Assembly (NCBI RefSeq): GCF_002854065.1
Contig: NZ_CP024147.1
Length of the DNA: 64,000 nucleotides
From: Escherichia coli
GTDB lineage: Bacteria; Pseudomonadota; Gammaproteobacteria; Enterobacterales; Enterobacteriaceae
Reading direction: 5' to 3' (one strand)
Shown here one piece after another: positions 8,374 to 56,150 of this stretch. How positions within the stretch are numbered: position 1 is the stretch's first letter; each line of letters opens with the position of its first letter. Under the pieces are notes generated by a model. It did not search any database. It saw only the letters and a list, made by a program, of their open reading frames with translations, and was not told the DNA's origin. A program made the translations under genes and the position numbers.

Positions 8374-8520
8374 GATTCGCCTGAACATGCCCTTTTTTCG
8401 TAAGTAAGCAACATAAGCTGTCACGTTTTGTGATGGCTATTAGAAATTCCTATGCAACAACTGAAAAAAAATTACAAAAAGTGCTTTCTGAACTGAACAA
8501 AAAAGAGTAAAGTTAGTCGC

Positions 8521-8629
8521 GTAGGGTACAGAGGTAAGATGTTCTATCTTTCAGACCTTTTACTTCACGTAATCGGATTTGGCTGAATATTTTAGCCGCC
8601 CCAGTCAGTAATGACTGGGGCGTTTTTTA
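8521..8629 (+). ncRNA. spf: Spot 42 small RNA
   Basis: Sequence gtagggtacagaggtaagatgttctatctttcagacc...gccccagtcagtaatgactggggcgtttttta matches Spot 42 including its terminator. Confidence 0.93.
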
Positions 8630-9657: not shown

Positions 9658-9900
9658 ATAGAGCGAGGACGCTAACAGGAACAATGACTCAGGATGAGGG
9701 TCAGGAGCGCCAGGAGGCGAAGACAGAGGATTGTCAGGAAGACAAACGTCCGGAGACGTAATTAAACGGAAATGGAATCAACACGGATTGTTCCGGCTAA
9801 TGGAAAAACAGGGTGTGTTGGCGGCCTGCAAGGATTGTAAGACCCGTTAAGGGTTATGAGTCAGGAAAAAAGGCGACAGAGTAATCTGTCGCCTTTTTTC
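9658..9900 (+). ncRNA. csrC: CsrC small RNA (CsrA-sequestering)
   Basis: About 245 nt with many GGA/AGGA motifs, ending in hairpin aaggcgacagagtaatctgtcgcc plus T-run; located between engB and yihI. Confidence 0.85.
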
Positions 9901-9968
9901 TTTGCTTGCTTTCTGTTAGATTCCGCCGCAAATCTATACTGAATAAAACGGCTAAAAGACGAACCATT

Positions 9969-14919: not shown

Positions 14920-15092
14920 AAAGCAGTCTCCTGAACAGGTTGCACCATTTTAGTGCATTATAGCTTTTTACGGATAAAAAGCGCGAAGCATCAGAGAATT
15001 GACGGAGAAAAAAGCCCATGCAGAGATGGGCTGAAAGTTTCCACGGCAACTAAATCCCGGCGTTGTTGCGCCGGGTAGTACAACTTCAACTA

Positions 15093-16502: not shown

Positions 16503-16582
16503 ACTTTAACTCTCCTGGATTGGTCATTGTCGTCGTGGTAACGAAATCTGCAATTATTTTGGCCGTGTCGCCGTAAAAAAGA

Positions 16583-16604
16583 TAAAGCGAAAACTGTGCC
16601 AACT
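16583..16604 (-). promoter_or_regulatory. glnAp2 sigma-54 promoter (-24 GG / -12 GC)
   Basis: Reverse strand reads TTGGCACAGTTTTCGCTTTATC, a sigma-54 -24/-12 consensus. Confidence 0.8.
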
Positions 16605-16654
16605 TTTAAATTGCCCCTAAAAGGCGTTATCATGCTTAACATCGTGCAAAAGGG

Positions 16655-16725
16655 CTGCACCATGATGTGAATGTTGCACCAATATAGTGCTTCAATGGAA
16701 ACATTAAGCACCATATTGGTGCAAT
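16655..16725. promoter_or_regulatory. NtrC enhancer sites upstream of glnA
   Basis: Repeated TGCACC-N-GGTGCA-like dyads (tgcaccatgatg, tgcaccaatatagtgc, agcaccatattggtgca). Confidence 0.75.
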
Positions 16726-16874
16726 GACCTTTGGATAACCCTTTTTATGCTCCGTGAAAGCGATCACAAAGGGACTCTGCAATACTTGTTTGCGGAGGAT
16801 GTTTGTGATCCTGTTTTGTAGTGCGATTAATCCGTGTACAATAACGCGCTATTTCTAATGCCTGAGGCAAAGTT

Positions 16875-18698
16875 GTGATCGAAAAATTGCGTAATATCGC
16901 CATCATCGCGCACGTAGACCATGGTAAAACCACCCTGGTAGACAAGCTGCTCCAACAATCCGGTACGTTCGACTCTCGTGCCGAAACCCAAGAGCGCGTG
17001 ATGGACTCCAACGATTTGGAGAAAGAGCGTGGGATTACCATCCTCGCGAAAAACACCGCTATCAAATGGAATGATTACCGTATCAACATCGTTGATACCC
17101 CGGGGCACGCCGACTTCGGTGGTGAAGTTGAACGTGTAATGTCCATGGTAGACTCAGTGCTGCTGGTGGTTGACGCATTTGACGGCCCGATGCCGCAAAC
17201 GCGCTTCGTAACCAAAAAAGCGTTTGCTTACGGCCTGAAGCCGATTGTTGTTATCAACAAAGTTGACCGCCCTGGCGCGCGTCCTGATTGGGTTGTGGAT
17301 CAGGTATTCGATCTGTTCGTTAACCTCGACGCGACCGACGAGCAGCTGGACTTCCCGATCGTTTACGCTTCTGCGCTGAACGGTATCGCGGGTCTGGACC
17401 ACGAAGATATGGCGGAAGACATGACCCCGCTGTATCAGGCGATTGTTGACCACGTTCCTGCGCCGGACGTTGACCTTGACGGTCCGTTCCAGATGCAGAT
17501 TTCTCAGCTCGATTACAACAGCTATGTTGGCGTTATCGGCATTGGCCGCATCAAGCGCGGTAAAGTGAAGCCGAACCAGCAGGTTACTATCATCGATAGC
17601 GAAGGCAAAACCCGCAACGCGAAAGTCGGTAAAGTGCTGGGCCACCTCGGTCTGGAACGTATCGAAACCGATCTGGCGGAAGCTGGCGATATCGTAGCGA
17701 TCACGGGCCTGGGCGAACTGAATATTTCTGATACCGTTTGCGACACGCAAAATGTGGAAGCGCTGCCGGCACTCTCCGTTGATGAGCCGACCGTTTCTAT
17801 GTTCTTCTGCGTTAACACCTCGCCGTTCTGCGGTAAAGAAGGTAAGTTCGTAACGTCTCGTCAGATCCTGGATCGTCTGAACAAAGAACTGGTACACAAC
17901 GTTGCGCTGCGCGTAGAAGAAACCGAAGACGCCGATGCGTTCCGCGTTTCTGGTCGTGGCGAACTGCACCTGTCTGTTCTTATCGAAAACATGCGTCGTG
18001 AAGGTTTTGAACTGGCGGTATCCCGTCCGAAAGTAATCTTCCGTGAAATCGACGGTCGTAAACAAGAGCCTTACGAAAACGTGACGCTGGACGTTGAAGA
18101 ACAGCATCAGGGTTCTGTAATGCAGGCGCTGGGCGAACGTAAAGGCGACCTGAAAAACATGAATCCAGACGGTAAAGGCCGCGTACGTCTCGACTACGTG
18201 ATCCCAAGCCGTGGTCTGATTGGCTTCCGTTCTGAGTTCATGACCATGACTTCCGGTACTGGTCTGCTGTACTCCACCTTCAGCCACTACGACGACGTAC
18301 GTCCGGGTGAAGTGGGTCAGCGTCAGAACGGTGTACTGATCTCTAACGGTCAGGGTAAAGCGGTAGCGTTCGCGCTGTTCGGTCTGCAGGATCGCGGTAA
18401 GCTGTTCCTCGGTCACGGTGCAGAAGTTTACGAAGGTCAGATTATCGGTATTCATAGCCGCTCTAACGACCTGACTGTAAACTGCCTGACCGGTAAGAAA
18501 CTGACCAACATGCGTGCTTCCGGTACTGACGAAGCCGTTGTTCTGGTTCCGCCTATCCGCATGACTCTGGAACAAGCTCTGGAGTTCATCGATGATGACG
18601 AACTGGTAGAAGTGACTCCGACCTCTATCCGTATTCGTAAACGTCACCTGACGGAAAACGATCGTCGTCGCGCCAACCGCGCACCGAAAGACGATTAA
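16875..18698 (+). CDS. typA: Ribosome-associated translational GTPase BipA/TypA
   Basis: 607-aa ORF with [10 protein letters not shown]1 motif, EF-G-like domains; GTG start. Confidence 0.97.
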
Positions 18699-18715
18699 TT
18701 TCGTTTTTTAGTCAT

Positions 18716-18748
18716 AAAAAACCTGCCAGCGATGGCAGGTTTTTTTTT
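18716..18748 (+). terminator. Rho-independent terminator of typA
   Basis: Hairpin acctgccagcgatggcaggt followed by T9. Confidence 0.8.
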
Positions 18749-18914
18749 GCCTGTCGTGAGCGCACACCAATGCGAGTATCTCCCTTATAAGTCTGTGGTT
18801 ACGTCAATAGAGAGCTTTGTCACAATTATCTGCAAAGTCATACGCCGTTAATTGCTTTCTTTTTTGGCGTAAGCGTAAGATGCTTCATCTGGTTTAAACC
18901 AAAAGGATTAAACA

Positions 18915-19550: not shown

Positions 19551-19605
19551 GGTGATGCTGCCAACTTACTGATTTAGTGTATGATGGTGTCTTTGAGGTG
19601 CTCCA

Positions 19606-19881
19606 GTGGCTTCTGTTTCTATCAGCTGTCCCTCCTGTTCAGCTACTGACGGGGTGGTGCGTAACGGCAAAAGCACTGCCGGACATCAGCGCTATCTCTG
19701 CTCTCACTGCCGTAAAACATGGCAACTGCAGTTCACTTACACCGCTTCTCAACCCGGTACGCACCAGAAAATCATTGATATGGCCATGAATGGCGTTGGA
19801 TGCCGGGCAACCGCCCGCATTATGGGCGTTGGCCTCAACACGATTTTCCGCCATTTAAAAAACTCAGGCCGCAGTCGGTAA
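19606..19881 (+). CDS. insA: IS1 InsA
   Basis: Identical 91-aa product. Confidence 0.95.
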
Positions 19882-20303
19882 CCTCGCGCATACAGCCGGG
19901 CAGTGACGTCATCGTCTGCGCGGAAATGGACGAACAGTGGGGATACGTCGGGGCTAAATCGCGCCAGCGCTGGCTGTTTTACGCGTATGACAGGCTCCGG
20001 AAGACGGTTGTTGCGCACGTATTCGGTGAACGCACTATGGCGACGCTGGGGCGTCTTATGAGCCTGCTGTCACCCTTTGACGTGGTGATATGGATGACGG
20101 ATGGCTGGCCGCTGTATGAATCCCGCCTGAAGGGAAAGCTGCACGTAATCAGCAAGCGATATACGCAGCGAATTGAGCGGCATAACCTGAATCTGAGGCA
20201 GCACCTGGCACGGCTGGGACGGAAGTCGCTGTCGTTCTCAAAATCGGTGGAGCTGCATGACAAAGTCATCGGGCATTATCTGAACATAAAACACTATCAA
20301 TAA
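19800..20303 (+). CDS. insB: IS1 InsB
   Basis: Identical 167-aa product. Confidence 0.93.
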
Positions 20304-20318
20304 GTTGGAGTCATTACC

Positions 20319-36993: not shown

Positions 36994-37008
36994 GGTAATG
37001 ACTCCAAC

Positions 37009-37512
37009 TTATTGATAGTGTTTTATGTTCAGATAATGCCCGATGACTTTGTCATGCAGCTCCACCGATTTTGAGAACGACAGCGACTTCCGTCCCAGCC
37101 GTGCCAGGTGCTGCCTCAGATTCAGGTTATGCCGCTCAATTCGCTGCGTATATCGCTTGCTGATTACGTGCAGCTTTCCCTTCAGGCGGGATTCATACAG
37201 CGGCCAGCCATCCGTCATCCATATCACCACGTCAAAGGGTGACAGCAGGCTCATAAGACGCCCCAGCGTCGCCATAGTGCGTTCACCGAATACGTGCGCA
37301 ACAACCGTCTTCCGGAGCCTGTCATACGCGTAAAACAGCCAGCGCTGGCGCGATTTAGCCCCGACGTATCCCCACTGTTCGTCCATTTCCGCGCAGACGA
37401 TGACGTCACTGCCCGGCTGTATGCGCGAGGTTACCGACTGCGGCCTGAGTTTTTTAAATGGCGGAAAATCGTGTTGAGGCCAACGCCCATAATGCGGGCG
37501 GTTGCCCGGCAT
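37009..37512 (-). CDS. insB: IS1 InsB
   Basis: Identical 167-aa product on minus strand. Confidence 0.93.
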
Positions 37513-37706
37513 CCAACGCCATTCATGGCCATATCAATGATTTTCTGGTGCGTACCGGGTTGAGAAGCGGTGTAAGTGAACTGCAGTTGCCATGTTTTAC
37601 GGCAGTGAGAGCAGAGATAGCGCTGATGTCCGGCAGTGCTTTTGCCGTTACGCACCACCCCGTCAGTAGCTGAACAGGAGGGACAGCTGATAGAAACAGA
37701 AGCCAC
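37431..37706 (-). CDS. insA: IS1 InsA
   Basis: Identical 91-aa product on minus strand. Confidence 0.95.
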
Positions 37707-37761
37707 TGGAGCACCTCAAAAACACCATCATACACTAAATCAGTAAGTTGGCAGCATCACC

Positions 37762-39694: not shown

Positions 39695-39749
39695 GGTGAT
39701 GCTGCCAACTTACTGATTTAGTGTATGATGGTGTTTTTGAGGTGCTCCA

Positions 39750-40025
39750 GTGGCTTCTGTTTCTATCAGCTGTCCCTCCTGTTCAGCTACTGACGGGGTG
39801 GTGCGTAACGGCAAAAGCACTGCCGGACATCAGCGCTATCTCTGCTCTCACTGCCGTAAAACATGGCAACTGCAGTTCACTTACACCGCTTCTCAACCCG
39901 GTACGCACCAGAAAATCATTGATATGGCCATGAATGGCGTTGGATGCCGGGCAACCGCCCGCATTATGGGCGTTGGCCTCAACACGATTTTCCGCCATTT
40001 AAAAAACTCAGGCCGCAGTCGGTAA
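39750..40025 (+). CDS. insA: IS1 InsA
   Basis: Identical 91-aa product. Confidence 0.95.
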
Positions 40026-40447
40026 CCTCGCGCATACAGCCGGGCAGTGACGTCATCGTCTGCGCGGAAATGGACGAACAGTGGGGATACGTCGGGGCTA
40101 AATCGCGCCAGCGCTGGCTGTTTTACGCGTATGACAGGCTCCGGAAGACGGTTGTTGCGCACGTATTCGGTGAACGCACTATGGCGACGCTGGGGCGTCT
40201 TATGAGCCTGCTGTCACCCTTTGACGTGGTGATATGGATGACGGATGGCTGGCCGCTGTATGAATCCCGCCTGAAGGGAAAGCTGCACGTAATCAGCAAG
40301 CGATATACGCAGCGAATTGAGCGGCATAACCTGAATCTGAGGCAGCACCTGGCACGGCTGGGACGGAAGTCGCTGTCGTTCTCAAAATCGGTGGAGCTGC
40401 ATGACAAAGTCATCGGGCATTATCTGAACATAAAACACTATCAATAA
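39944..40447 (+). CDS. insB: IS1 InsB
   Basis: Identical 167-aa product. Confidence 0.93.
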
Positions 40448-40604
40448 GTTGGAGTCATTACCGGGACGTATTACTCCATTCTGGATAGCGACGGCGATAA
40501 AAAACACGGTGATGATACTGATGACCGTTACGGCGCACGCGTTCGCTTTAAATACTTCTTCTGATGAAGGCGCGGTGCTGGATATTTTCCGGCACCGCAA
40601 CTCA

Positions 40605-41789: not shown

Positions 41790-42195
41790 ACGACCCGTAG
41801 GCCGGATAAGGCGCTCGTGCCGCATCCGGCAATCAATGCCTGATGCGACGCTGTCGCGTCTTATCAGGCCTACAACTATTGCCGACCTGTAGGCCGGATA
41901 AGGCACTTGTGCCGCATCCGGCAATCAATGCCTGATGCGACGCTGTTGCGTCTTATCAGGCCTACAACTGTTGCCGACCTGTAGGCCGGATAAGGCACTT
42001 GTGCCGCATCCGGCAATCAATGCCTGATGCGACGCTGTCGCGTCTTATCAGGCCTACAACTATTGCCGACCTGTAGGCCGGATAAGGCACTTGTGCCGCA
42101 TCCGGCAATCAATGCCTGATGCGATGTCGCGTCTTATCAGGCCTACAACTGTTGCCGACCTGTAGGCCGGATAAGGCACTTGTGCCGCATCCGGC
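41790..42195. repeat. BIME/REP tandem array in rhaD-rhaA intergenic region
   Basis: About 4.5 tandem units containing gtaggccggataaggcacttgtgccgcatccggc and gcctgatgcgacgctgtcgcgtcttatcaggcc palindromes. Confidence 0.9.
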
Positions 42196-49167: not shown

Positions 49168-50151
49168 ATGCAGATAAAACGCTCGATTGAGAAAATCCCG
49201 GGGGGGATGATGCTCGTCCCGCTATTCCTTGGCGCACTGTGCCACACCTTCTCGCCGGGGGCGGGGAAATATTTTGGATCATTCACCAACGGGATGATTA
49301 CCGGTACGGTGCCCATTCTGGCGGTGTGGTTTTTTTGCATGGGGGCGTCAATAAAATTAAGCGCGACGGGAACGGTACTGCGTAAATCCGGTACGCTGGT
49401 GGTAACTAAAATTGCCGTCGCGTGGGTGGTTGCGGCAATTGCCTCGCGCATTATTCCGGAACATGGTGTTGAAGTTGGATTCTTTGCCGGACTTTCAACG
49501 CTGGCGCTGGTGGCGGCGATGGATATGACCAACGGCGGACTTTACGCTTCCATCATGCAGCAGTACGGCACAAAAGAAGAAGCTGGGGCATTTGTGTTGA
49601 TGTCGTTGGAGTCCGGGCCGCTCATGACGATGATTATTCTGGGCACTGCCGGGATTGCCTCGTTTGAACCGCATGTTTTCGTCGGCGCAGTATTACCGTT
49701 CCTGGTGGGCTTTGCCCTTGGGAACCTTGACCCTGAATTACGAGAATTTTTCAGCAAAGCGGTGCAGACGCTGATTCCATTCTTTGCCTTCGCACTAGGC
49801 AATACCATTGATTTGACTGTAATTGCCCAGACAGGTTTGCTGGGGATCCTGTTGGGTGTGGCAGTAATTATCGTGACCGGTATTCCGTTGATTATCGCCG
49901 ATAAATTGATTGGCGGTGGCGATGGCACTGCCGGAATTGCCGCTTCCAGTTCCGCAGGGGCCGCGGTAGCGACACCTGTGCTGATTGCAGAAATGGTGCC
50001 TGCGTTTAAACCGATGGCTCCGGCAGCAACTTCGCTGGTAGCGACGGCAGTCATTGTGACTTCGATTCTGGTGCCAATTCTTACCTCTATCTGGTCACGT
50101 AAAGTCAAAGCCAGAGCGGCGAAAATCGAAATTTTAGGTACGGTGAAATAA
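49168..50151 (+). CDS. kdgT: 2-keto-3-deoxygluconate permease
   Basis: 327-aa membrane [26 protein letters not shown]. Confidence 0.93.
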
Positions 50152-50979: not shown

Positions 50980-51065
50980 GGAGTGTAGGCCTGATAAGAC
51001 GCTATCAGCGTCGCATCAGGCATCCTGCTCAAATGCCGGATGCGGCGTAAACGCCTTATCCTGCC
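50980..51065. repeat. REP elements
   Basis: gcctgataagacgc...gcgtcgcatcaggc and gccggatgcggcg palindromes. Confidence 0.8.
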
Positions 51066-56047: not shown

Positions 56048-56150
56048 TGCCTGATTCGCTTCGCTTATCAGGCCTACGTGAATTCTGCAATTTATTGAAT
56101 TTACAAACTTTTGTAGGCCGGATAAGGCGTTCGCGCCGCATCCGGCATTG
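56048..56150. repeat. REP elements
   Basis: gcctgattcgcttcgcttatcaggcc and gccggataaggcgttcgcgccgcatccggc palindromes. Confidence 0.8.

Follow-up and report, generated by a model that had tools for sequence, protein, structure and literature searches.

The window analysed here, a stretch of 64,000 nucleotides from an Escherichia coli contig (NZ_CP024147.1), carries glnA, glnL and glnG in full length, with typA divergent from glnA (table 1). The RefSeq annotation of identical DNA agrees with all four gene calls. Both the gene order, with typA divergent from glnA-glnL-glnG, and the -24/-12 element upstream of glnA are the same as in the K-12 glnAp2/glnALG system studied by Reitzer, Magasanik and Ninfa. 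We identify the region between glnA and typA as the control region of glnAp2, serving the glnALG operon on an E. coli-type chromosome, and are almost certain of this (probability about 0.97); none of the observations speaks against it. The glnAp2/NtrC enhancer found here is an already known system, and the result confirms that one of the most thoroughly studied enhancer-promoter pairs of bacteria is correctly annotated.

Table 1. Features of the glnALG locus and its control region, in window positions; centres are relative to the predicted glnAp2 start.
Feature	Position	Strand	Centre	Sequence	Remarks
glnG (NtrC / NR-I), 469 aa	12449..13858	-			full length; NF008176, 1050 bits, full profile; predicted activator of the NtrC sites below
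glnL (NtrB / NR-II), 349 aa	13870..14919	-			full length; NF008293, 700.8 bits over residues 1-349
NtrC operator at glnLp	14941..14957	-		TGCACTAAAATGGTGCA	in the glnA-glnL spacer; best weight-matrix match in the window
glnA, glutamine synthetase, 469 aa	15093..16502	-			full length; NF007006, 1048.6 bits, residues 1-469
glnA leader	16503..16574	-			Shine-Dalgarno GGAGAG; conserved CA-rich block at 16544..16517
glnAp2 transcription start (predicted)	16575	-			12 nt past the -12 GC; the ATG lies 73 nt further on
glnAp2 sigma-54 promoter	16586..16602	-		TTGGCACAGTTTTCGCT	GG at -25/-24, GC at -13/-12
low-affinity NtrC site V	16612..16628	-	-45	AACGCCTTTTAGGGGCA	weak score, -3.1 (top 1.2e-3); identical in K-12
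NtrC site IV remnant	16633..16648	-	-65.5	TGCACGATGTTAAGCA	left half-site kept, right half-site lost
low-affinity NtrC site III	16656..16671	-	-88.5	TTCACATCATGGTGCA	4.5 bits, 16-mer model; top 1.5e-4 of window positions
NtrC enhancer site II	16675..16691	-	-108	AGCACTATATTGGTGCA	conserved
glnAp1 core (approximate)	16695..16724	-			putative sigma-70 promoter, CRP-dependent and NtrC-repressed; putative -35 TTGCAC within site I, weak -10 TTTCCA/TTCCAT
NtrC enhancer site I	16707..16723	-	-140	TGCACCAATATGGTGCT	overlaps the glnAp1 -35 region
CRP-like site	16753..16768	-		TGTGATCGCTTTCACG	one mismatch to TGTGA-N6-TCACA; putative role
typA	16875..18698				divergent from glnA

A first-pass annotation of this DNA had placed a sigma-54 promoter of the -24/-12 type upstream of glnA, and the string that it named, TTGGCACAGTTTTCGC, is indeed present on the minus strand (16602..16587), 85 nt 5' of the glnA ATG (16502). 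When at most one mismatch is allowed, the pattern TGGCAC-N5-TTGCW has a single match in the 64-kb window, at 16601..16586. The element, TGGCACAGTTTTCGCT, carries one mismatch to the sigma-54 consensus (TCGC for TTGC), as does K-12 glnAp2, and its GG and GC doublets lie exactly one helical turn apart. Promoter and glnA are on one strand, and transcription would start approximately 12 nt past the GC, at a position 73 nt 5' of the glnA ATG that we take to be the K-12 start reportedly mapped by Reitzer and Magasanik in 1985. A +1 at 16575 puts four of the NtrC sites at -140.0, -108.0, -88.5 and -45.0, in agreement with the positions published for sites I-V of glnAp2 (PMC5159524). No rpoN gene lies within the 64-kb window. 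Taken alone, the sigma-54 consensus is not above chance (1 match versus 3.5 expected from shuffles), so a test of the joint architecture was used in its place.

Three NtrC dyads had also been proposed some 60-130 bp further upstream, and sites I, II and III are found there, centred 113, 81 and 61.5 bp 5' of the promoter's 5' end. Sites I and II are 17-bp dyads of the TGCACC-N5-GGTGCA type, with one and two mismatches respectively, about 32 bp apart and more than 100 bp upstream of glnAp2. Scanning both strands of the window with TGCACC-N4-TGGTGCA at up to two mismatches yielded 7 strand-hits versus 2.1 expected, a number reached in 2 of 100 shuffles; apart from sites I and II, the matches comprise the glnLp operator (14941-14957) and one other. 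We also ran the weight-matrix check that the first-pass annotation had suggested, using a matrix built from 62 unique strong sites of non-Escherichia orthologs and made palindromic, the core columns of which are somewhat inflated because the sites were harvested by a loose GCAC-N7-GTGC filter. Across the 64 kb this matrix scored site I at 25.4, site II at 24.8 and the glnLp operator at 25.8 bits, versus 11.0 bits for the next best position, which is also the best outside the gln operon. The next-best NtrC-like dyads outside the operon, CGCACCTTTCCAGTGCC (32352-32368, 11 bits) and TGCACCGCTTTGCTGAA (49750-49766, two mismatches), are probably chance matches.

None of 300 dinucleotide-preserving shuffles reproduced the joint arrangement, in which a sigma-54 element has two or more NtrC dyads 40-200 bp 5' of it, all on one strand. 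This result bears directly on whether the motifs could be chance matches, or the remnant of a decayed, non-functional promoter in a genome under IS-mediated decay. Such an explanation would fit the chance-level count of the sigma-54 consensus, the four IS1 copies in the window and an IS1-associated deletion 2.7 kb away. It is effectively refuted by the shuffling result, by the weight-matrix scores and by the identity of the DNA to a functional region of O157:H7 strain TW14359; glnA, glnL and glnG are also all full length, and we give the idea almost no credence.

The window contains, letter for letter, the 501-bp control region of TW14359 (NC_013008:4912950-4913450), so the assignment to glnAp2 is supported by experiments on the same allele, beyond homology to K-12. 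Identity is 100% over the 501 bp for the glnAP2 regions of both O157:H7 strains compared, TW14359 and PV15-279. The published ‘confirmed NtrC box’ at 4913213-4913228 corresponds to 16707..16722 of the window, which is site I; in TW14359, a glnAP2 probe was shifted by purified NtrC in an EMSA, and nitrogen-limited rpoN and ntrC deletion mutants were glutamine auxotrophs (PMC4287178). The window does not come from O157:H7 itself: the surrounding chromosome differs, and that of PV15-279 lacks both the IS1 insertions of the window and its yihL-yihM-yihN deletion.

By analogy with the K-12 literature, sigma-54 RNA polymerase would form a closed complex at the -24/-12 element (16602..16586). Under nitrogen limitation, NtrB would phosphorylate NtrC, and NtrC~P would oligomerise at the -140 and -108 dyads, loop the DNA between them and the promoter, and open the promoter with ATP. 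From glnAp2, transcription would proceed through glnA, with glnL and glnG expressed by read-through. Through the same two dyads NtrC would also repress glnAp1, the sigma-70 promoter further upstream, which the dyads would overlap. The weak sites III and V, with site IV degenerate, would modulate output at high NtrC~P.

The operator in the glnA-glnL spacer is the same 17-bp NtrC dyad as the glnAp2 enhancer sites but differs from them in its setting, as a single repressor site at a sigma-70 promoter rather than a sigma-54 enhancer. Repression of glnLp by NtrC has been described (PMC3870243). The spacer itself (14920-15092) is 173 bp long versus 285 bp in K-12, and corresponds to the ‘O157-type’ short (85-nt) glnA 3'UTR, the source of the GlnZ sRNA (PMC9731577).

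Upstream of glnAp2, TGTGA-N6-TCACA has 5 matches in the window versus 1.9 expected, one of them the CRP-like site of table 1. Binding of Fis and CRP near -55 was reportedly described by Huo et al. in 2006 and Tian et al. in 2001. The glnAp1 promoter is located upstream of glnAp2 and repressed by NtrC (bioRxiv 10.1101/2023.01.17.524496; PMC3870243). A sigma-70 consensus scan called no minus-strand promoter at glnAp1, as expected for a weak activator-dependent promoter, and its hexamers therefore stay putative.

The sRNA family ES222 of Rfam (RF02755) has a full-length plus-strand match at 16686-16793 (133 bits versus a gathering score of 62). It is antisense to the glnA upstream region, lies across the CRP-like site as well as NtrC site I, and has a terminator-like stem-loop (16775-16797) at its 3' end. 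These features could suggest that 16686..16793 is conserved mainly as a plus-strand small RNA or typA leader, and not for NtrC and CRP. We consider this very improbable, as NtrC binding has been shown on identical DNA (PMC4287178), and the dyad symmetry, the 32-bp spacing and the conservation all track protein-site boundaries. A literature search for ES222 function found none. The ES222 and NtrC readings are not mutually exclusive: the match indicates that both strands here may be transcribed, and the NtrC reading is not displaced by it.

Across E. coli, the 501-bp control region is present at 95% identity or more in 5,425 of 5,426 complete genomes. For a wider comparison, species-representative genomes were scanned with AAGTTGGCACAGNTTTCGCT, giving at least 120 loci, 97 of which have a recognisable glnA start downstream. 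In these 97 orthologs among the matches listed, the sequence is almost invariant at the CRP-like site, at each of the two strong NtrC sites I and II, over the right half of site III, without a break through sites IV and V, and in the CA-rich part of the leader, with the CRP-like site among the most conserved of all; between the blocks the sequence is variable. Conservation of the -24/-12 element was not counted as evidence, since this pattern had served to find the orthologs. The glnAp2 of other Enterobacteriaceae (Salmonella, Citrobacter, Klebsiella, Enterobacter and others) has the same architecture, near-invariant at sites I and II, at site III (right half), at sites IV-V and at the promoter.

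The CA-rich block of the glnA leader, TCGTTACCACGACGACAATGACCAATCC (16544..16517, minus strand), is approximately 80-90% conserved in the 97 enterobacterial orthologs among the matches listed, and could be an sRNA or protein binding site, or a translation enhancer. The predicted RNA fold of the leader is no more stable than that of shuffled sequences (z=+0.81). An undescribed translational control of glnA is mentioned in a 2023 preprint.

At sites III and IV the dyads span 16 bp, one base less than the 17 bp of the strong sites, and the 17-bp NtrC consensus has no match at either. The governor of K-12 glnAp2 was reportedly described by Atkinson, Pattaramanon and Ninfa in 2002. Sites III and IV together form this ‘governor’, which limits glnAp2 at high NtrC~P (PMC3870243; bioRxiv 10.1101/2023.01.17.524496). 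In the window, the right half-site of site IV carries three linked substitutions, at 16639, 16637 and 16636. The dyad scores -5.3 bits (within the top 2.9e-3 of window positions only), compared with +0.1 for K-12 and +5.1 for the family majority, and the right half alone, AAGCA, scores -12.9 bits versus -2.1 in K-12. Judged by the matrix, site IV is unrecognisable as an NtrC site in this allele. Most other Enterobacteriaceae have an intact site IV, TGCAC-N6-G[C/T]GCA, which the window allele lacks; E. albertii (GATGCTCA) likewise has a degenerate site IV, as do a few other genera. The first-pass description of a classical glnAp2 architecture, intact and conserved, thus stands for the strong elements, their positions and the genes, but not for site IV (-66), with its right half-site lost, nor for the promoter spacer, where -18 is changed from A to T.

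K-12 and the window share sites I and II at -140/-108, sites III and V, the CRP-like site and the leader, with 98.6% identity over the 501 bp. An alignment to the K-12 lineage (C600) shows seven substitutions, all within 16528-16715. From K-12 to the window these are C>T at the centre of site I, G>A at the centre of site III, C>A in the leader, three substitutions at site IV (GGTGCGCA>GTTAAGCA) and A>T at -18 (16593) in the sigma-54 spacer. At site I, site III and the leader the outgroup majority agrees with the window, and at site IV and -18 it agrees with K-12; by this sequence comparison, the site-IV allele of the window is the derived one. Among the representative-genome matches listed, it is found in E. 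coli only. The window-type site IV occurs in 2,209 of 5,426 complete E. coli genomes (approx. 41%), including O157:H7, ST131/JJ1886, O145 and APEC O78, and the K-12-type in 3,209, including K-12, B, IAI1 and O103. The three site-IV changes are always linked, on otherwise mosaic haplotypes. T at -18 is present in 1,348 of the 5,426 E. coli genomes and in 19 of the 97 orthologs among the matches listed, which marks it as a tolerated state.

We also considered whether the control region is unusually polymorphic. Relative to K-12, its SNP density is 2.9% (7 in 238 bp), versus 1.7% in glnA (with identical protein), 3.3% in glnG and 0.9% in typA; at 2.9% against 0.9-3.3% in the flanking genes, the idea was rejected. 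Variation at this level is ordinary divergence between lineages; what is notable is only the cluster of three substitutions in 4 bp.

This cluster raises the question of whether the window carries a functionally distinct natural allele, in which loss of the right half-site of site IV, possibly with the -18 A>T change that lengthens a T-tract, weakens the governor and allows a higher glnALG ceiling at high NtrC~P than the K-12 type. The three linked changes fall in a half-site, G[C/T]GCA, present in nearly all Enterobacteriaceae sampled, and take the site-IV score from +0.1 or +5.1 down to -5.3; the allele is also frequent (2,209 versus 3,209 genomes). K-12 constructs engineered to lack site III or IV gave approximately 125-224% output at high NtrC, according to PMC5159524 quoting Atkinson 2002, which makes a modest effect of the natural allele plausible. 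However, site IV of K-12 is itself already weak (0.1 bits), a degenerate site IV in E. albertii and several genera suggests tolerance or neutrality, and a SNP density of 2.9% is ordinary for a lineage pair. Moreover, K-12 with swapped O157 3'UTRs had equivalent GlnA and NtrC levels, in an experiment that exchanged the 3'UTRs and left the promoters in place. On balance we regard a functional difference as possible but less likely than not.

If it were real, the approximately 41% of complete E. coli genomes that have lost the right half of site IV might reach a higher glnALG, and hence NtrC, ceiling under severe nitrogen limitation than K-12-type genomes, a suggestion that we make tentatively and would not bet on. 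Whole lineages would then naturally carry a retuned version of a model enhancer whose study has been confined to the K-12 form. Our searches of the literature on the glnAp2 governor and on O157 glnAp2 found no report of a natural site-IV variant, and a comparison of glnA in UPEC and K-12 used an MG1655 promoter fusion in both strains, the sequences not being compared. Quantitative models of glnAp2 and synthetic-biology parts assume the five-site layout of K-12, whereas about two-fifths of sequenced E. coli are without a recognisable site IV. An altered dose-response to NtrC~P would matter for comparisons of nitrogen responses between K-12 and pathogens, and for NtrC-linked regulation of virulence and acid resistance.

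The glnAp2 nitrogen-control module is intact in a genome otherwise rich in IS1. Four 768-bp IS1 copies, 100% identical to one another, lie in the 64 kb (1397-2164, 19551-20318, 36994-37761 and 39695-40462); the InsA/InsB open reading frames were confirmed for the second, with transposase matches. Shigella-like or IS-expanded E. coli typically show such a density, and the lineage is possibly Shigella-like. The copy at 19551-20318, approximately 2.7 kb from glnAp2, replaces 1,443 bp of K-12/O157:H7 sequence (the yihL 3' end, all of yihM and the yihN 5' end), leaving a truncated yihL (a 220 aa ORF) and a truncated yihN. An alignment artefact beyond yihL, where the MAFFT alignment diverges, was rejected, as BLAST shows a real IS1 replacement. 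The yihL-IS1-yihN junction is present as one continuous piece in 2 of the 8 records listed, out of 17 records in all that cover at least 80% of the query. The closest E. coli genome among the matches listed is strain 100416, with 100% identity over 24.9 kb and IS1 in at least 40 places; none of the others listed exceeds 99.2%.

Two further observations concern the wider window. A perfect direct repeat of at least 300 nt (838-1137 and 2165-2464, spaced 1,327 bp apart) flanks the first IS1 copy, and may represent a target duplication, or a different element into which IS1 has inserted. Finally, Rfam matches at gathering level were also obtained at 8511-8629, 9658-9911, 18683-18751, 33631-33689, 41800-42143, 50988-51065 and 56070-56111; they comprise Spot 42, CsrC, STnc370 just past the typA stop, a SECIS element on the minus strand, ES036, and naRNA4/REP-type units arranged as a tandem array of four plus one more.
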